A stretch of 47,560 nt of DNA from a virus (IMGVR_UViG_2630968533_000001); one strand, 5' to 3'; numbered from the stretch's first letter, positions 3,870 to 47,560 are shown. The notes: generated by a model not told the origin, from the letters alone. Program-made: numbers and translations.

Positions 3870-4360
3870 TCATGTCAATACGGCGGGATTTTAACAGAGA
3901 CAACCACATAGCGTGGGTTTATTGGTAGGCAGAAACAAAAAAACCGCCCTATTGAGGACGGTTCTTTCGTGCTGATCGGATTCGCGGTCCTTTCAGCATA
4001 ACGTCGTTGTATAAACAACCACGCAAGCACAAGCAGCAAGTTAATTTTACCCAAAAGGTAATAATAGTCCACTATTATGCTTCAAAAAATTGTGGTTCTT
4101 GTTGTGCCTGCAAACTCACAGATTGTGGGTAGGTTACTGATTTTGTGAAAATAAACGAGTTTTTTCGTTTAATTTCTTTCCTATTACTAATCTTAAAATA
4201 ATCGTAAAATACCTGTGGACCTTCCCGCCGATTCGCACCCGGGCACCGACTTTAGGGGAGGATTCTCCGTTGCCGTACATGCAAGCACAAGCAGCCGTGC
4301 TTGCTCTCGCGTTGTTTTCGTCGGTGGGGATGCCGTGAAACGGCCTGTAAGGGCCATACA

Positions 4361-4840: not shown

Positions 4841-5509
4841 TTACGCGGCAGTAGTCAGAGCCTCAAGCTGGTTGATAATCCCCTGAATAACGTCGTCTGC
4901 CTTTTTGCGTGGCGCAACGTATGAGCATTCAATGAGGCTTAAGCCCTTATCCTGAGCTTTGCTCAGAGCTGGCTTGTGGGGAATGTACTTATCGACAACA
5001 AAGTATGGCGTATTAGCCAGGTACTCTTGGGCTTCAATGTAGTCGGCTTCGTTTTCAGCCGCGCCTGAGAACACCATGCAAATTTTCTTGATTGGCACAC
5101 CCTTTTTAACGATGCCGTGAGCTGTGTTAACGGTGGTTTCCAGGTCATCGGTAGAGAATCTGGTTGGCAAAATAACCATATCCAGAAATTCAGAGAGCTT
5201 CGGTACTGATTCAGATGCGTAGGCACCGCCATCGACGATAACCAGGTCGTATACTTCTGATTCGATGATTTTCTGGACTTGTGATGGCGTGCCGCACGGC
5301 TGCGCCGCGATTGCAGGTTCGATATTGTTGGCCATTCTGCGTTGTACCCAACGCGTTACCGTTCCGTTAAGCACATCCATATCGATCAGGCATACATTCC
5401 AGCCGGCCTTTGCATAAGCAACTGCTAAAGCACGGGCAATTGTTGATTTGGTTACGCCGCCTTTTCCGTTGAAAATACCTACAGAGATAGTCATTTGTCG
5501 AGACTCCAT
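4841..5509 (-). CDS. parA: ParA/ParF-type partition ATPase
   Basis: ORF track; deviant Walker A GKGGVTKST near the N-terminus; about 220 aa, typical of small type Ib ParA proteins. Confidence 0.85.
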   Translation of the reverse strand: MESRQMTISVGIFNGKGGVTKSTIARALAVAYAKAGWNVCLIDMDVLNGTVTRWVQRRMANNIEPAIAAQPCGTPSQVQKIIESEVYDLVIVDGGAYASESVPKLSEFLDMVILPTRFSTDDLETTVNTAHGIVKKGVPIKKICMVFSGAAENEADYIEAQEYLANTPYFVVDKYIPHKPALSKAQDKGLSLIECSYVAPRKKADDVIQGIINQLEALTTAA

Positions 5510-5511
5510 GT

Positions 5512-5620
5512 ATTTGGTTATATAATTCTATAAATCTATATTTATAGAACGAGGTAAGCATAACCAACTTTTTGGCGGATGAAAAGCGTTTTATATAATT
5601 ATATAAATCTATAATCATGT
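5512..5620. repeat. Iterated AT-rich boxes upstream of parA (putative partition operator/centromere-like site)
   Basis: Two related boxes (5518-5549, 5589-5616) containing TATATAATT(A/C)TATA and AATCTATA; perfect 14-bp palindrome TATATAATTATATA at 5592-5605. Confidence 0.4.
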
Positions 5621-5644
5621 AAGCGGGCGTTAGCCCGCTTTCAG

Positions 5645-15162: not shown

Positions 15163-15331
15163 TATATATTTCTATAATTATATAAATATATAGTTACAAC
15201 ATTCTATGCGCTTTTCTCATGGGCGCACGCATCAACCATGTTTGTCTGATATGCCGCCGCGCCCAAAAATCCTGAATTTATTGGCTGGGATTTTCGTGCG
15301 CGGCGCCACACCAGACAAACAAATCAAATAT

Positions 15332-39998: not shown

Positions 39999-42845
39999 GT
40001 GAGTAAATTATTATTTACGATGACTGACGCCGGGCGTAAGGCGCTGGTTAATGCCAACAAGACTGGAACAAATAAAGTTGAGATCGTTTCTGTTGGTTTA
40101 GGTAGTAGATATTATGCCACATCAACCACACAAACAAAAATAACAGATGAAATAAAGCGACTTACCACAATAGGAGGCAAAGTCGTTTCTCCTGATACCA
40201 TTCATGTAACTGCGAAGGATGATAGTAAAGATGAGTATGTTGTCCATACAATAGGTTTGTATACAAATAAAGGAACATTGTTTGCTGTATACTCGCAAGA
40301 ACAAGTAATAATAAATAAAGCATCTTCTACAATTGCTTTAATATCAAGTGATATAGCAATTAAAAATCTTGATACTAAAAACATTACATTTGGTGATGTT
40401 GAGTTTATTAACCCTCCCGCAACCGAAACTGTTGTTGGAGTAGCAAGATTTGCTAATGAACAAGAAATTGATGCAGGTACAGATGATTCCCTGGCTGTTT
40501 CAGCAAAGCGGCTTAAGCAAGCTATTGTAAAACATGAGCAATCACGTAATCATCCTGATGCAACTTTAACATCAAAAGGCATTGTTCAACTCAGTAATGC
40601 CACCAATAGCACGTCTGAAAAGCTCGCAGCGACGCCTAAGGCTGTTAAGGCTGCATATGACCTGGCTAACGCTAAATACACCGCACAGGACGCTACCACG
40701 GCGCGAAAAGGGATTGTTCAGCTCAGTAGTGCCACTAACAGTACGTCTGAAACGCAGGCGGCAACGCCAAAAGCGGTCAAGGCAGCAAATGACAACGCAA
40801 ATTCACGTCTGGCGAAAAATCAGAACGGTGCAGATATCCAGGATAAATCAGCTTTTCTGGACAATGTTGGCGTTACCAGCCTGACGTTTATGAAAAACAA
40901 TGGCGAAATGCCGCTTGATGCTGATCTGAATACGTTTGGTCCTGTTAAGGCTTATTCAGGTATCTGGTCTAAAGCAACATCCACCAACGCAACACTGGAG
41001 AAAAATTTCCCGGAAGATAATGCTGTCGGTGTGCTTGAGGTTTTTGCTGCCGGCAATTTTGCAGGTACGCAACGCTTTACCACGAGAGACGGCAATGTAT
41101 ACATGCGTAAACTCGCCAATAAGTGGAATGGCACTGATGGTCCGTGGGGCGTATGGCGTCACACTCAATCTGCTACCCGCCCTTTGAGTACGACTATAGA
41201 CCTGAATACGCTTGGAGCCGCCGAGCATCTTGGTTTATGGCGTAACAGTAGCTCAGCTATAGCTTCATATGAACGCAATTATCCAGAGGAAGGCGGCTTT
41301 GCTCAGGGGATGCTTGAGATCCTCGAAGGCGGAAATTATGGAAGAACGCAACGTTATACCACTCGCCGTGGAAATATGTATGTCCGCTGTCTTGCGGCAA
41401 GCTGGGATGCATCAAATCCGCAGTGGGAACCGTGGTTAAGAGTCGGTCATCAGTCAGAGAGTCGTTATTACGACGGTGATTTGAATGATGTAACCTCACC
41501 AGGTATTTACAGCGTTACAGGTAAAGCGACCAACGGTCCAATACTGGACGGAAACGGCGTGACAGTCCTCGGTATTCTGGAGGTGTTGAGGCGCTTTGAT
41601 GGTGTTAATGTATGGCAGCGTTATACAACTGCCGGAACAGGTACAACCCTTAAAGGCCGCACCTTTGAGCGCGTCTTTACCGGCAGCTCATGGAGCGAAT
41701 GGCGGGAAGTCTACACCTCGTATTCACTTCCCCTGAATCTGGGTATCGGCGGTGCTGTGGCAAAGCTCACCAGCCTGGACTGGCAGACCTACGATTTTGT
41801 GCCGGGCAGTCTGATAACCGTTCGGCTTGATAACATGACCAATATTCCCGACGGTATGGACTGGGGCGTCATTGATGGCAACCTGATAAACATCTCAGTC
41901 GGTCCGAGTGATGATTCTGGTTCGGGACGCTCAATGCATGTATGGCGCAGCACTGTAAGTAAAGCCAACTACCGCTTTTTTATGGTTCGCATTTCAGGAA
42001 ATCCGGGAAGCCGCACGATCACGACAAGACGTGTGCCAATTATCGACGAAGCTCAGACATGGATGGCGAAACAGACATTCAGCGGTGGTCTTTCAGGCGA
42101 ACTATCCGGCAATGCTGCTACAGCAACAAAGCTGAAAACGGCAAGGACAATTAACGGCGTAAAATTTGACGGCTCGGCAAATATTGAAGCGTTTCCGCCA
42201 GGTGTTCCGCTGCCGTGGCCATCAGATACGCCACCTGCAGGTTATGCAATCATGCTGGGGCAGACGTTTGATAAGGCAGCATATCCGAAACTGGCTATTG
42301 CCTATCCTTCTGGTGTTATTCCAGATATGCGCGGCTGGACAATCAAGGGCAAACCCGCCAGTGGTCGGGCCGTATTGTCTCAGGAACAGGATGGCATTAA
42401 ATCGCACACCCACAGTGCCAGCGCATCCAATACGGATTTGGGTACGAAAACCACATCGTCGTTTGATTACGGTACTAAATCAACGAATAACACAGGTGCA
42501 CATACCCATAATGTATCTGGTACTGCAAATAGTGCTGGCGCACATACTCATACCGTTCCATTAAGGAGACCAAACAGTGGCGGTATGAATTTCGACTGGC
42601 TGGATGGTTCATCAAGTGGCACGGTGGTGGGGAATGGAACTGTGCCTTCTTCTGGCGCACATACCCACTCAGTATCAGGTACCGCTACAAGTGCTGGGGC
42701 ACATGCACACACTGTTGGTATTGGCGCTCATACGCACTCTGTTGCGATTGGTTCACATGGACACACCATCACCGTTAACGCTGCTGGTAACGCGGAAAAC
42801 ACCGTTAAAAACATCGCATTTAATTATATTGTGAGGCTTGCATAA
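39999..42845 (+). CDS. Tail fibre protein (948 aa; GTG start)
   Basis: ORF track; duplicated collar motif [21 protein letters not shown]; His-rich C-terminal GAHTH repeats; followed by Tfa. Confidence 0.85.
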
Positions 42846-43462: not shown

Positions 43463-43989
43463 AATTTAGTGATGAATGTTGAATCATCAGGAATATCATG
43501 CAATACCAATGCATGAGCACCTATTGTGACATTGTTTCCTATACGCACTTTGCCACCAAGAATGGTGGCATTACAACCAATGGTCACATTATGCCCTATA
43601 ACAATATCCATATCATTAAATTCCCCGCGAAGTCCAATAGTTACTCCGGGCTTAATTGAACAATTTTCACCGATTGTTACTTTGTGACCGATAACAACAC
43701 TGTTGAGATAAGAAATATCAAAGCCTTTCCCTATATTTACAGTTAAAGGGACTGTTACATTATATTTATCAAGAATGAAACGTTCTATTTTTCCCGCAAT
43801 CTTCCGACAGTATCCGCCTTTATCAAAAAGGTATTTGGCTATGCGCCACCAAAATAAATAACGAACCCTTCTATGTTTTATTGCGCGAACAATTGCCTTT
43901 CGCCAGGAGAAAGGACGCTCGCTACCGATTACTTCATAGTGAATACAGTCTTTAAGTTCATTAATATTCATATCTTTATTATTCAGCAT
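43426..43989 (-). CDS. Hexapeptide-repeat (left-handed beta-helix) acetyltransferase, CysE/WcaB-like
   Basis: ORF track; repeated [LIV]-G-x-x-x-x-I-G hexapeptides ([49 protein letters not shown]); convergent, 3' end overlaps Tfa by about 37 nt; AT-rich. Confidence 0.75.
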
Positions 43990-44469
43990 AAGATAATCAT
44001 GTGACCAATTATTGTAATAATTTTAATGGTATGTTTCTACTGGCTATCCAGCGTGTCTGATACCCAGTAACAAATCGTTAACACAGGTGCAATCAAATGG
44101 TGAGTGTTAAGACTGGCCACTTATTACCAGGTATGAGGGTATGAGTGGCCAGCATTAAATCAGAACAGCCCTTTAACTGAACTGGCCGCGCTGTTAAGGG
44201 ATGATGTCACCTTATCTTTGAAGCCGGACAGCATATTGCTGAACGATGAGTTTACCGCAGGTTTCTGGCTGGGAATCATTGACTGGAGTTAGGCCAGTAG
44301 TATGATGCTCGCAAAACGAGATCCAATTTAGATCCTTTTACTGGTGGATTATCGTTCGATCAGTGAGAGACTTCGTGCATGACCGAAAGTGTTGTGGTAG
44401 AGTTCTCTTAAAACCACGTAACGTGGTTATGATTGTGGGTGTCTGGTTGGAAAGTGACCAGATATGGAA

Positions 44470-44590
44470 ACAAAAAGCCCGCAGATAAATCTGCGGGCTT
44501 CTTGCGACATCCACGGAAAACCAACAATTAACCATGGGCGCCTCGACAACTCCCATTATACGTTGGTTTTCCGTGGACGCAAGAGCGAAC
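44470..44590 (-). ncRNA. CopA-like antisense RNA region (copy-control hairpins in the repA leader)
   Basis: On the minus strand: long stem-loop (44510-44577, arms TCCACGGAAAACCAAC / GTTGGTTTTCCGTGGA) followed by hairpin GCCCGCAG-ATTTA-CTGCGGGC and U-run (44471-44499), the architecture of IncFII CopA antisense RNAs. Confidence 0.45.
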
Positions 44591-44592
44591 AT

Positions 44593-45441
44593 ATGGATAG
44601 ACCAATGCCGTCTCTACGTTCAGCTTACGTTTGTAATTTGTCGCCGGAGTTCCAGCCTCCAAAGCACCATACGCACAAGCTGCCGCTGGTGTTATCTGAT
44701 GCTTTACAGCGCATTAATGGGCGTGATCTTACGTGTGAGGTTGCGTTCTACGTTAATCAACCGTCAGAGCGGAAGCGCCGGATAAACGAGCATCGTCGTC
44801 GGGCGATTAATGCTGTGATCGCTGCGATTTTGCACCATGTAAACATCATTTCTAAGCGGGTTCTGGCCAGTGCTGAGGCGTTGGCTGATTTTTGCGGCCT
44901 GTCTACCGTATCCGAAGCTGGGAACAAGTCTATAACACGCTGTACAAGGGCGTTGTCGCAACTGAAAGCGTTAGGTTTTATTGATTATGAACGTCGCTGG
45001 GATCGGGTGAATAAACAGTATTGGCCAGCGAAAATAGAGATTCGTGATCAACTGCTGGAAACCGTTGGTATTACTGAACAAGCATGGAGACGTGCGGTTA
45101 GCCAGAAACTTAATTACTTCAATGCGAAGAATAGCGAACGGCTTAAAAAAGCGATAACGGAGGCTGATTATAAGCGTATTGTTATTCAGGAGCAGATGGA
45201 GAATGTATGGCGTCAGAGGAAGACGGCCAGAGAGATAAAGGCAAAACAGAAAGCAGCGGAGAGAGCTGCGCGTCTTGTTCGGGAAAAGGGAGAGGCCGAA
45301 CTTCGTCATCAAATCACTAGAGAGGTTAGCCAGGAATTTGCTGATGGCATGTATCCTGGAGCTGACCTTGCATATTTACGATCCCTCGTTGAGCAGCGTT
45401 ATAACAGGTTAAGAAAGACCTGGAAATCACTCCAACATTAA
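44593..45441 (+). CDS. repA: Replication initiator RepA (IncFII RepA1-like)
   Basis: ORF track ORF 44464-45441; core CGLSTVSEAGNKSITRCTRALSQLKALGFIDYE recalled as close to R100/R1 RepA1; start placed at ATG 44593 to match the ~285-aa length of RepA1. Confidence 0.75.
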   Translation: MDRPMPSLRSAYVCNLSPEFQPPKHHTHKLPLVLSDALQRINGRDLTCEVAFYVNQPSERKRRINEHRRRAINAVIAAILHHVNIISKRVLASAEALADFCGLSTVSEAGNKSITRCTRALSQLKALGFIDYERRWDRVNKQYWPAKIEIRDQLLETVGITEQAWRRAVSQKLNYFNAKNSERLKKAITEADYKRIVIQEQMENVWRQRKTAREIKAKQKAAERAARLVREKGEAELRHQITREVSQEFADGMYPGADLAYLRSLVEQRYNRLRKTWKSLQH

Positions 45442-45479
45442 CCCACCTGAATGATGAATCCGGTTTTACCGGAGGATTA

Positions 45480-45700
45480 TCTACGTCGCAATAAAACATC
45501 TGTTCAAAAAACAATCTAAATTAATTTTCTCTAAACCTGAACACAGCAAAAATATCGCCTTTACAGGCATCGGCTAATAAAGTTATCCACAGTTTTGATA
45601 TGTATATGCAAATGGTTTTTTATAATAGATGCACTAAACAAATAAATGCAAAATCACTTTCTTTTATTAAGACTTTCTTTATTTAACTTACGCAGGCTTT
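45480..45700. promoter_or_regulatory. Putative origin region with DnaA box TTATCCACA (45583-45591) and AT-rich tract
   Basis: Perfect DnaA-box consensus directly downstream of repA followed by about 100 bp of AT-rich sequence, as in IncFII oriR layouts. Confidence 0.45.
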
Positions 45701-45910
45701 GCCTGTGAATATGTTCGCCCTTGCAGCGAGCTAAAGCTCGCGCCGGTTCGAGTCGCTACGCTCAAATATACCTCCTCCGGCACTTGCCGGAGGCATGGAG
45801 CAGCCTGATCATCCTTTTCGAAACGGCGCGTTTCGAACTATACAAAATCAATTTATATAAGGCCGAAATAAGGCCTACGGCCGGGCTTTGCAGGAGGAAG
45901 GGGCGAGCCT
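45700..45910. repeat. Cluster of five short GC-rich hairpins
   Basis: Perfect short inverted repeats caggc/gcctg, gcgagc/gctcgc, ctccggca/tgccggag, cgaaacg/cgtttcg, aggcc/ggcct within 200 bp. Confidence 0.35.
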
Positions 45911-46072
45911 TATCAATAAACGTCGATAAATACGCACACAGTAGCCATCAGAACGCGATAAAACGTAAGAAACATCATTTCCTATTAGACATAGAAAACT
46001 TGTCTTATACGCAATGTAGTAAATTTCTATTGCCACATAGGAAAAGATTTCCTACCATCGTAGATATAATAA

Positions 46073-46372
46073 ATGGAGATGGTTATGGATAAAGATACTG
46101 TTTTAAAAATGTTGAATCCGGCTTGTTTAAAAAAAGCGGATGAATGGGAATCTCCTACATGTGGAGAAGTTCGGGCAGTCATTGGCCTGACCGGAATGAG
46201 CGGCTCGCAGTTAGCCAAAAAACTAGGCTTAAAAGATAGTCGCAATGTTCGCAACTGGCAGATGTTAAAGGAGTCCACATCCAGATCCAGCATTCCGTAT
46301 GCAGCCTGGGCGCTGCTGTGTTACTTCGCTGGGTTAGGGTTAATCTTCATTGATAACAAAACAGATGTTTGA
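46073..46372 (+). CDS. Putative HTH DNA-binding protein with hydrophobic C-terminus (99 aa)
   Basis: ORF track; GEVRAVIGLTGMSGSQLAKKLGLKDSRNVRNWQ resembles an HTH. Confidence 0.45.
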   Translation: MEMVMDKDTVLKMLNPACLKKADEWESPTCGEVRAVIGLTGMSGSQLAKKLGLKDSRNVRNWQMLKESTSRSSIPYAAWALLCYFAGLGLIFIDNKTDV

Positions 46373-46659
46373 AACATGCAAATATGAGGTTTGTTATGGA
46401 ACTTGTACGCAAAACACGCAAAGAGTTCTTGGACCTGTATCGCATGGGAGCTTTCACTTGTGTTGTGGCTACCCAGGACGAAGTGACAAAAAGCTGGCGG
46501 CTTTTTGCTCTCAATAAAAAAGGGATTGCCGTTTTCATTGAAAAAGCCCGTGGTGGTATCCGCGAATGGGCGGGATTGAATTATGTGGCTGATTTTTGCG
46601 CAGCTATGGGGATTCGTCGCTGGGAAGTCCATATGCCAGGAGTAAAGTCACAAAAATAG
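46369..46659 (+). CDS. Hypothetical protein (96 aa)
   Basis: ORF track; coupled to the upstream gene. Confidence 0.45.
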   Translation: MKHANMRFVMELVRKTRKEFLDLYRMGAFTCVVATQDEVTKSWRLFALNKKGIAVFIEKARGGIREWAGLNYVADFCAAMGIRRWEVHMPGVKSQK

Positions 46660-46897
46660 GACTTTCGCGTCGAAAATGAGGCGAAACTGAAAACGAGATT
46701 TCATTAACAAATAAGCAACATAAAAAACGGTGGAAAACGCCCAGGAAAACATGATCTTTTGAGCGGATTTTTTAGATCCGACAATGAACGGTGATCCGGT
46801 GGTGCCGATAACGTCCATTATGTTAAATAGCCCCGTTTTTCTTGAAATTATAACTCACAGGTTATATAGTTAGTGATATAAACTACAGGTTATAGGA

Positions 46898-47251
46898 TTG
46901 AGCATGTGGACGGTACTTTTTAGCCAGCGATTTGACGACTGGCTAAATGAGCAAGAAGACGCTCTTCAGGAAAAGGTTTTGGCTGATTTGAAAAAGCTAC
47001 AGGTTTACGGACCTGAGTTACCCAGGCCATATGCCGATACCGTAAAAGGTTCTCGGTACAAAAATATGAAAGAGCTTCGCGTTCAGTTTTCTGGCCGTCC
47101 GATAAGAGCCTTTTATGCGTTCGATCCGATTCGCCGGGCCATCGTTCTTTGTGCAGGAGACAAAAGTAACGATAAGCGGTTTTATGAAAAACTGGTGCGT
47201 ATAGCTGAGGATGAGTTTGCAGCACATCTGAACACACTGGAGAGCAAGTAA
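46898..47251 (+). CDS. RelE/ParE-superfamily toxin (HigB-like gene order)
   Basis: ORF track; KELRVQFSGRPIRAFYAFDPIRRAIVLCAGDKSNDKRFYE matches the addiction-module killer signature as recalled; toxin gene precedes the antitoxin. Confidence 0.7.
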   Translation: MSMWTVLFSQRFDDWLNEQEDALQEKVLADLKKLQVYGPELPRPYADTVKGSRYKNMKELRVQFSGRPIRAFYAFDPIRRAIVLCAGDKSNDKRFYEKLVRIAEDEFAAHLNTLESK

Positions 47252-47550
47252 TGAGAACATTAGATGAGGCGATTGCCAGCCGTTCACCTGAAAGCCAGGC
47301 GCGAATTAAAGAAATGGCAGATGAGATGATTCTTGAGGTCGGCTTGCAGATGATGCGTGAAGAACTCCAGTTATCACAAAAACAGGTTGCTGAGGCGATG
47401 GGTATAAGCCAGCCAGCAGTAACAAAGCTGGAGCAGCGCGGAAATGATTTAAAGCTGGCGACATTAAAGCGTTACGTTGAAGCTATGGGAGGCAAATTAA
47501 GCCTGGATGTTGAGCTTCCCACAGGAAAACGAATAGCGTTTAACATCTGA
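47251..47550 (+). CDS. HTH (XRE-type) antitoxin, HigA-like
   Basis: ORF track; start overlaps toxin stop (TAATG); HTH LSQKQVAEAMGISQPAVTKLEQRGNDLKLATL. Confidence 0.7.
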   Translation: MRTLDEAIASRSPESQARIKEMADEMILEVGLQMMREELQLSQKQVAEAMGISQPAVTKLEQRGNDLKLATLKRYVEAMGGKLSLDVELPTGKRIAFNI

Positions 47551-47560
47551 TCAGAACGAA

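Follow-up and report, generated by a model that had tools for sequence, protein, structure and literature searches.

A cluster of five perfect short inverted repeats lies directly past the DnaA box and AT-rich stretch of a phage-plasmid of about 47.5 kb, and the question that this locus raises is whether the repeats take part in replication and, if so, on which strand. We analysed the whole stretch of DNA, 47,560 nt long (the window, to which all coordinates refer unless another record is named). The original prediction had read the cluster as single-strand initiation signals (ssi, similar to primase G sites) or else as a small structured RNA. Our analysis favours the first of these in kind: the cluster probably makes up the right half, active as single-stranded DNA, of an IncFII-family (R1/R100-type) origin that an E. 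coli phage-plasmid carries, with hairpins that would form on the minus strand and a primase start that we place at 45892. As an IncFII-family origin with a primase start site, the element is of a known kind. The sequences show that the hairpins are there, that covariation maintains hairpins 1–3, that pairing is kept up on the minus strand, and that the start motif holds its position and strand across the family.

Immediately upstream, in cis, the plus strand encodes an IncFII-family replication initiator (repA, 44464–45441; Pfam PF02387, IncFII_repA, E=1.3e-43), which is annotated as repA in near-identical plasmids and whose true start codon may lie further in than the start of the open reading frame. 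Just 3' of its stop codon, at the position that CIS occupies in R1-type replicons, there is a plus-strand hairpin (TCCGGT-TTT-ACCGGA, 45459–45473) homologous to the stretch directly after the R100 repA stop; its ACCGGAGG part is kept across the family and, from what is known of R1, we take it to be the CIS region. Between 100 and 200 bp after repA come a DnaA box (TTATCCACA, 45583–45591, plus strand), read from the sequence and kept in relatives, and then the AT-rich origin core (45592–45690). The core holds conserved ATGCA-type repeats, presumed to be the RepA-binding part, and ends in two 15-nt direct repeats (ACTTTCTTT(T)ATT(T)AA, 45656–45686), presumed to be the unwinding element. The DnaA box and AT-rich region can be aligned with those of pKPC_UVA01-type, IncFII_K and Salmonella relatives. 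Both precede the hairpins, as had been predicted, and the order DnaA box, AT-rich region, hairpins is that of oriR of R1, a 188-bp origin in which RepA binding adjoins a DnaA box and from which replication is unidirectional (PMC5883639). By analogy with R1, replication in the window would run rightward. The plus-strand GC skew, positive across the entire window, is consistent with rightward unidirectional replication, although as evidence it is confounded because the genes are oriented to one side. Ter (Tus) sites like those of R100 were not found near the window origin, the only perfect one lying 30 kb away.

The 651 bp around the cluster occur at full length and at least 95% identity in 58 PLSDB plasmids (57 from Escherichia and one from Klebsiella, all typed as non-mobilizable), and at 98–99.5% identity in three Yersinia myophages. 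In near-identical records the hairpin region is an unannotated gap between repA and a small hypothetical gene; the gap adjoins tail-fibre genes and a HigB-type toxin-antitoxin pair. A 123-codon open reading frame (45721–46092) overlaps the hairpins and is non-coding, as had been suspected: it has no Pfam match, is unannotated in RefSeq and GenBank relatives and is broken there by frameshifting indels of 1–2 nt. At its place the related locus L003 has only a 64-codon frame with a GTG start (2128–2322 of that locus). A RepA-based search for related loci gave no lineages beyond the L003- and L160-type relatives.

All five of the predicted repeats were found, spanning 184 bp (45693–45876) and thus within the 200 bp expected of them. 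The interval first given for the cluster, 45700–45910, does contain it, except that its start clips hairpin 1 (45693–45705), and the description of the stems as GC-rich applies to four of the five, the exception being hairpin 4 (G-C in four of nine pairs). In 2000 dinucleotide-preserving shuffles of 45690–45880 (191 bp) the mean number of such hairpins was 1.5 and five or more were reached with P=0.017, while the observed summed stem length beyond 4 bp, 15, was reached in none. Single-strand fold prediction, which had been proposed as a check, gave for both strands a better folding than in shuffles (z=-3.2 and -3.3). By the stem measure, however, the cluster ranks about fifth among the 200-nt windows of the sequence and is not unique, and because several others score as high the shuffle statistics alone are not decisive. 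It is the comparative evidence that decides whether the hairpins are real: hairpins 1–3 recur, with compensatory stem changes, in at least 27 divergent IncFII-family origins. Against phages, a distant BLAST of the hairpin region returned three near-identical Yersinia phages and noise, and no G4-like phage.

Hairpin 1 is a perfect 5-bp stem in the window (CAGGC-TTT-GCCTG, or CAGGC-AAA-GCCTG on the minus strand), and in L003 and L160 a compensatory G-C to A-T change turns its arms from CAGGC/GCCTG into CAGAC/GTCTG. Most of the 27 origins have a hairpin at this position, with mismatches that are C.A on the plus strand and hence T.G on the minus strand. Hairpin 2 (45726–45741) is a perfect 7-bp inverted repeat, GCGAGCT-AA-AGCTCGC, set in a block (45716–45750) that reads 5'-CGAACCGGCGCG AGC TTTA GCT CGCTGCAAGGGCG-3' on the minus strand and combines invariant flanks with a covarying inner stem. 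Across 28 distinct sequences and six pairs (168 cells), pairing in hairpin 2 was 100%, with 33 cells changed on both sides, a result as high as which was found in 0 of 500 shuffles; controls slid along the alignment paired in 23–66%. The three outer G-C pairs never vary and the three inner ones have all changed on both sides, giving AGC/GCT, GAC/GTC, ACG/CGT, ACC/GGT, AAC/GTT, GCG/CGC and GCC/GGC. A model-based alignment of 30 sequences upheld the covariation.

Hairpin 3 (45774–45793) has a 9-bp stem, CCTCCGGCA CT TGCCGGAGG, which on the minus strand reads CCTCCGGCA AG TGCCGGAGG; its position is conserved, its helix is 88.5% paired across the family, and five of eight pairs have changed on both sides. 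Taken jointly over the 30 sequences, hairpins 2 and 3 are 93.5% paired with 59 doubly changed cells (0 of 500 shuffles; slid controls 31–57%). The covariation counts, like the wobble counts given below, include related sequences, so the independent events are fewer than the cells; we count no fewer than four independent wobble positions and six stem variants.

Two further conserved hairpins belong to the phage-plasmid clade. Hairpin 4 (45817–45837) is a perfect 9-bp palindrome, TTCGAAACG GCG CGTTTCGAA, of which eight of nine arm pairs are identical in three phage-plasmid lineages and the outermost is lost in L003; with arms so nearly invariant, it shows no covariation. L130 and L147, with a RepA of 59% identity, do not have it. 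Neither the palindrome nor its half-site has further copies in the window beyond chance, so an operator set finds no support, and the palindrome may serve either a structural or a protein-binding role. The fifth of the predicted hairpins (AGGCC-GAAATAA-GGCCT, 45860–45876, 5 bp), perfect in the window, is probably incidental; its left arm is not kept in L003 or L160. Overlapping it is a further one (hairpin 5', 45872–45882; GGCC-TAC-GGCC on the plus strand, GGCC-GTA-GGCC with a GNA triloop on the minus strand), which is kept in all three phage-plasmid lineages with minus-strand loops GTA, GAA and GTA.

Which strand folds can be read from the mismatches and the loops. In the model-based alignment the non-Watson-Crick cells included 31 G.T pairs on the minus strand versus one on the plus strand. 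The covariance model used there was constructed on the minus strand, which may bias it towards G.U pairs, and an alignment-free hairpin scan that allowed one mismatch of any kind agrees with it: when read on the plus strand, each of the 16 mismatches in hairpin 3 was A.C or C.A, equivalent to G.T on the minus strand. The sole plus-strand G.T of that scan, a hairpin-1 call in L082, is probably spurious. GNA loops among the 129 triloop hairpins of 27 origins were likewise one-sided, with 35 on the minus and seven on the plus strand. Such triloops are a signature of DNA hairpins, and d(GCGAAGC) and d(GCGNAGC) DNA mini-hairpins are known from oligonucleotide work for their exceptional stability. 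The minus strand of the window has one of the d(GCGNAGC) type (GC-GTA-GC, 45755–45761), with equivalents in relatives (GCGAAGC in L160 and L095, GCGTAGC in L003, L004 and L163); hairpin 5' is of this type too, and similar minus-strand loops occur in hairpin 3 of IncFII-proper relatives (GAA, GTA, GCA or GGA). The likeness is to a structural motif and not to a functional family.

Since the wobble and GNA asymmetries have no meaning in duplex DNA, it appears to be the minus strand, by our inference the template of the leading strand, that folds while single-stranded, and the GNA loops suggest that it does so as DNA and not as RNA. IncFII-family origins share template-strand DNA hairpins that are kept by compensatory change, with wobbles and GNA loops on one strand, and from such a one-sided pattern one can tell by computation alone which strand of an origin acts single-stranded.

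These observations can be set against other readings of the cluster. The palindromes might be duplex binding sites for dimeric proteins, whether a host factor or a phage-plasmid regulator, and not folded strands at all. The almost invariant, non-covarying arms of hairpin 4 and the sequence-level conservation of the hairpin-2 flanks fit such sites, but the stems of hairpins 1–3 change in sequence and stay complementary, which a dimer reading the sequence would not tolerate, hairpin 4 occurs only once in the window, and one-sided wobbles and GNA loops would be meaningless in a duplex; we regard this reading as improbable. Even less credit is due to the small structured RNA of the original prediction, or to transcription across the origin that yields an RNA leader or an array of terminators. 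That the region folds better than shuffles would suit an RNA, covariation of the G.U type would also be expected of one with the minus-strand sequence, and hairpin 3 on the minus strand is weakly terminator-like. Against this, Rfam gave no match in 45442–46084 at E<=1 and only weak, chance-level matches elsewhere in 43500–47560; there is no suitably oriented promoter-like site reading through the region, the sole candidate (plus strand, 46030–46058) reading away from it; and GNA triloops are typical of DNA hairpins. In a search for intrinsic terminators hairpin 3 on the minus strand was alone in being flagged, weakly, and its tail is not T-rich in relatives. R1-type replication is not known to need a transcript at this place.

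An assembly site for the PriA-dependent (phiX174-type) primosome would be another use for structure-conserved hairpins such as 1–3, as PriA-type sites are single-stranded DNA hairpins near plasmid origins. We think it very unlikely here: AAGCGG/CCGCTT, the hexamer that hairpins recognised by PriA often contain, is missing from both strands of 45690–45910, which is a weak criterion, and the strand that folds is the leading-strand template, where R1 uses a primase-only site. R1-type replication is not known to depend on the PriA/DnaT primosome. With phiX174-type assembly sites and Frpo-type promoters the cluster shares that single-stranded secondary structures start synthesis on plasmids. It differs from them in having neither the AAGCGG hexamer nor a long hairpin mimicking a -35/-10 promoter, and the Frpo/ssi3 type belongs to the leading region of transfer (PMC10104558), whereas the window would prime at a vegetative origin.

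Having set these readings aside as improbable, we return to a primase start on the folded minus strand. A start consensus with 12 specified bases, CCTNCTGCWAAGCC, derived from the phages G4, alpha3 and St-1, matches the window perfectly at one place, the minus strand of 45884–45897 (CCTCCTGCAAAGCC), and there is no second perfect site in the window; about 0.003 would be expected by chance in 2 x 47.5 kb. The comparison with known G-site sequences that had been proposed thus yielded a match, and it contains the CTG triplet embedded in the start consensus of proven sites. In the G4 record the RNA primer is annotated at 3970–3997 and the origin at 3998, which places the start on the 3' side of stem-loop I, at the T of the CTG within CCTACTGCAAAGCC, and alpha3 and St-1 have CCTCCTGCTAAGCC at the equivalent place in the G-H intergenic region. 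Primase starts at the T of 5'-CTG-3', and hairpins keep SSB off G4ori (PMC6783573). In the window, the first primer nucleotide is accordingly predicted to be the A at 45892, opposite the T of CTG, from which the primer would grow rightward over a C-rich template tract (minus strand, 45893–45906; GGAGGAAGGGGCGA on the plus strand). Every plasmid site that was aligned has a C-rich tract 5' of CCTG, as do the stem-loop I 3' arms of G4 and alpha3. Hairpin 5' lies immediately 3' of the start motif on the template. Directly past the motif, at the C-rich tract, sequence similarity between the three phage-plasmid lineages is lost, which makes the motif the right edge of the origin.

A strict form of the motif, CCTG[CT]..[AG][AG][GC]C, was searched for downstream of the hairpin-2 block in the 27 origins and was found on the minus strand in 13; the plus strand gave one match and shuffles 0.64. 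In the remaining 14 the motif takes a relaxed form, again on the minus strand and with the same purine-rich tract after it. The motif lies about 115–146 nt past the block in origins of the short type, about 362–371 nt past it in those of the IncFII-proper type, which unlike the window have two Ter sites and some 250 more bp before the G site, and 552–564 nt past it in L090 and L157. R100 has CCTGCCAGACC / CCCTGCCAGACC at 40389–40399 (L007), about 360 bp rightward from where its 188-bp oriR ends. The G site of R1 and R100 has been mapped by experiment and uses primase alone, on the leading strand; in the work of Masai and Arai in 1989 and of Bernander et al. in 1992 it reportedly lies about 400 bp downstream of oriR, a position that the R100 match presumably represents. 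Strand and origin side of the window motif agree with R100, with all 27 related origins and with the positive GC skew, the direction of replication being taken from R1 (PMC5883639).

The window thus shares with R1 and R100 an IncFII RepA, a DnaA box, an AT-rich oriR and, on the same strand and origin side, a related start motif (CCTCCTGCAAAGCC in the window, CCCTGCCAGACC in R100) preceded by a C-rich tract. It differs from them in that the start lies about 200 bp from the AT-rich element, versus about 360–400 bp, in the lack of intervening Ter sites, and in a compact chain of hairpins that includes the hairpin-2 block absent from R100. With G4, alpha3 and St-1 oric it has in common the perfect CCTNCTGCWAAGCC match, the C-rich copied template, the start at the T of CTG (PMC6783573) and flanking stable hairpins with GAAA or GNA-type loops. 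The layout is nevertheless the opposite of that in G4, since the three stem-loops of the phages lie 5' of CTG on the template and all hairpins of the window lie 3' of it; to the right of 45893 there is no strong hairpin equivalent to G4 stem-loops I–III. The hairpins therefore cannot work exactly as in G4. Plasmid G sites are not known to need a 5' stem-loop structure. The ssi/G-site reading of the original prediction is thus partly supported: it holds as to kind and place, given the perfect consensus match and the strand-specific signs of single-stranded folding, although the likely start motif sits at the right edge of the hairpins and in none of the five. Smith-Waterman comparison of the window or R100 with G4 oric gave nothing significant beyond the start motif, and there is no detectable homology to the phages outside it. 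A 16/17 match between 45871–45888 and R100 40438–40454 was discarded as chance (it is not collinear with the start sites; shuffle P about 0.1). We also rejected a conjugative nick site, whose RP4/T-DNA border core ATCCTG/C resembles CCTGC: plasmids of the window type are typed non-mobilizable, no relaxase is among the features annotated near the motif, and the motif always keeps the same position past an IncFII-type origin.

By analogy with R1 (PMC5883639), RepA and DnaA would open the AT-rich element (45592–45690), and DnaB would then unwind rightwards, away from repA. The exposed minus strand, as leading-strand template, would fold into hairpins 1, 2 and 3, the GCGTAGC mini-hairpin, hairpin 4 and GGCC-GTA-GGCC, and these may prevent re-annealing and limit or phase the binding of SSB, much as at G4ori. 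DnaG would begin to prime the leading strand at the CTG of CCTCCTGCAAAGCC, opposite its T and with 45892 as first nucleotide, and leading-strand synthesis would proceed unidirectionally to the right. Such a scheme places the leading-strand start of a widespread phage-plasmid family of about 48 kb, found in E. coli, Salmonella and Yersinia, at a precise nucleotide, 45892, that can be tested.

The hairpin-2 block reaches much further than the rest of the cluster. In a distant BLAST of 45560–45920 against plasmids, the whole region matched only close relatives and one Salmonella phage-plasmid (74.6% identity), whereas a core of about 50 nt (45703–45775) matched more than 160 plasmids of Klebsiella, Enterobacter, Serratia, Citrobacter, Yersinia and Pantoea. 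In ten of ten plasmid loci examined, which include IncFII_K plasmids (copB-tap-repA), the Yersinia virulence plasmid and the pKPC_UVA01-type backbone, the core match lies 270–370 nt beyond where an IncFII-type repA stops. Further lineages came from a pattern scan for the block in genome and viral collections; among the genome matches, most of them in unrelated high-GC genomes, only those in Enterobacterales are real. The RepA of the window is 37% identical to that of the pKPC_UVA01 type and 40% identical to that of R100, and despite this 37–40% identity between groups CCGCCCTTGCAGCG-stem-loop-CGCGCCGGTTCG is almost invariant. A CTG on the minus strand (plus-strand CAG, 45724–45726) abuts the stem, and the CAG is kept even where its neighbour mutates (L163). 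The IncFII_K, pYV and pKPC_UVA01-type origins share with the window the hairpin 1-2-3 architecture, the near-invariant block and a downstream G-site motif; they differ in their RepA (37–40% identical) and in hairpins 4 and 5', which are confined to the phage-plasmid clade. R100 lacks the block, having a gap there of about 55–65 nt relative to its relatives and only a weak partial match to the covariance model.

Could this block itself be the main or a second primase start, with a primer from 45725 that copies the hairpin? On the minus strand the covarying hairpin is followed by CTGCAAGGGCG, which reproduces the stem-loop-then-CTGCAA layout of G4 stem-loop I and CTACTGCAAAG; the block resembles G4 CTGCAAAG, its CTG and flanks are invariant in at least 27 origins, and it lies within about 35 nt of the unwinding element. 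That its conservation is independent of RepA divergence suggests a host factor such as DnaG. On the other hand, the block departs from the phage start consensus at four of its 12 specified bases and is without the C-rich tract that lies 5' at every other site, in IncFII_K and pYV-type origins it is accompanied by a separate G-site motif, and R100, in which the G site was defined experimentally, does without the block entirely. We therefore consider a start within the block doubtful and keep to the start at 45892. As block and separate G-site motif coexist in many origins, the block is not simply 'the' G site; equally, the idea that the block and an R100-like G site are mutually exclusive was dropped, several origins carrying both.

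Primase may use the block as a second site, or another host factor may act there. It is conceivable, and we propose it tentatively, that 5'-CGAACCGGCGCG-stem/loop-CGCTGCAAGGGCGG-3' on the leading-strand template is an undescribed host-factor element, a signal of sequence plus structure in single-stranded DNA adjoining the unwinding element, for which a high-affinity primase entry site or another replisome-loading signal are candidate roles. Its sequence strings were not found in the literature searched and keyword searches gave nothing specific, so that it appears to be undescribed in the searchable literature. Its loss from the model plasmids R1 and R100 would explain why it went unnoticed. 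A host-factor site here, if real, would be a new component of the R1 paradigm and a possible marker of, or target in, the replicon family. The block is the most conserved part of many IncFII-family origins (IncFII_K, pYV, pKPC_UVA01-type and several phage-plasmids), and, although missing from R1 and R100, is near-invariant in the clinically important IncFII_K plasmids of Klebsiella, the pKPC_UVA01-type resistance plasmids and the Yersinia virulence plasmid.

The layout of the origin in the window, with hairpins 1, 2 and 3 (45693-45705, 45726-45741 and 45774-45793) and the candidate primase start motif or G site (45884-45897, minus strand), is shared with two IMG/VR viral contigs, L130 and L147, of 44.8 and 29.9 kb, whereas hairpin 4 (45817-45837) is absent in both. 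Their RepA proteins show 59% identity to that of the window, and these contigs are likely to represent additional phage-plasmid lineages with the same replicon type. A different departure is seen in R100 (40030-40100 of its locus), which retains hairpins 1 and 3, as in IncFII-family origins, but lacks the hairpin-2 block of ~55-65 nt with respect to the related locus L005 and most origins of the family. Since most IncFII-family origins contain this block, R100, the textbook model, is atypical in this respect. Short, perfect inverted repeats are also densely packed in two other parts of the window, at 5430-5640, with examples such as TTCTATAAAT CTAT ATTTATAGAA (5526-5549) and AAGCGGGC GTTA GCCCGCTT (5621-5640), and at 1-70; in the hairpin scan both clusters score at least as high as the origin cluster.

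The annotated repA ORF carries at its 5' end a perfect 12-bp hairpin, AAGCCCGCAGAT AA ATCTGCGGGCTT (44475-44500), which is probably the target stem-loop for a CopA-like antisense RNA; the true start of repA probably lies downstream of the annotated one. A weak, below-threshold match to the structured RNA Thr_leader was found on the minus strand at 44468-44578. To the right of the origin, a small ORF (46085-46372) is preceded by a sigma-70-like promoter (46030-46058), the sole one in this intergenic region. The palindrome TAGGAAA AGA TTTCCTA (46038-46054), detected in the inverted-repeat scan, together with its partner half-site ATCATTTCCTAT (45974-45985), overlaps this promoter, and the whole (45974-46058) looks like an autoregulation operator. 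Further along, two neighbouring ORFs of 117 and 99 aa (46898-47550) match genes annotated in relatives as a toxin of the HigB2/RelE family and an HTH antitoxin; the pair is a predicted plasmid addiction module adjoining the replicon.

R100-type origins carry two Ter sites directly beside oriR; the window instead contains a single site that matches the Tus-binding Ter core, GAATGTTGTAACTA, without mismatch, located at 15191-15204 on the minus strand. Assuming the polarity of TerB, this site would block forks heading to lower coordinates, and the rightward forks of the origin would get through it. Plus-strand GC skew is positive in every 4-kb interval of the window, with an overall value of +0.13, which fits either a leading-strand role for one strand along its entire length or a one-sided orientation of the genes.
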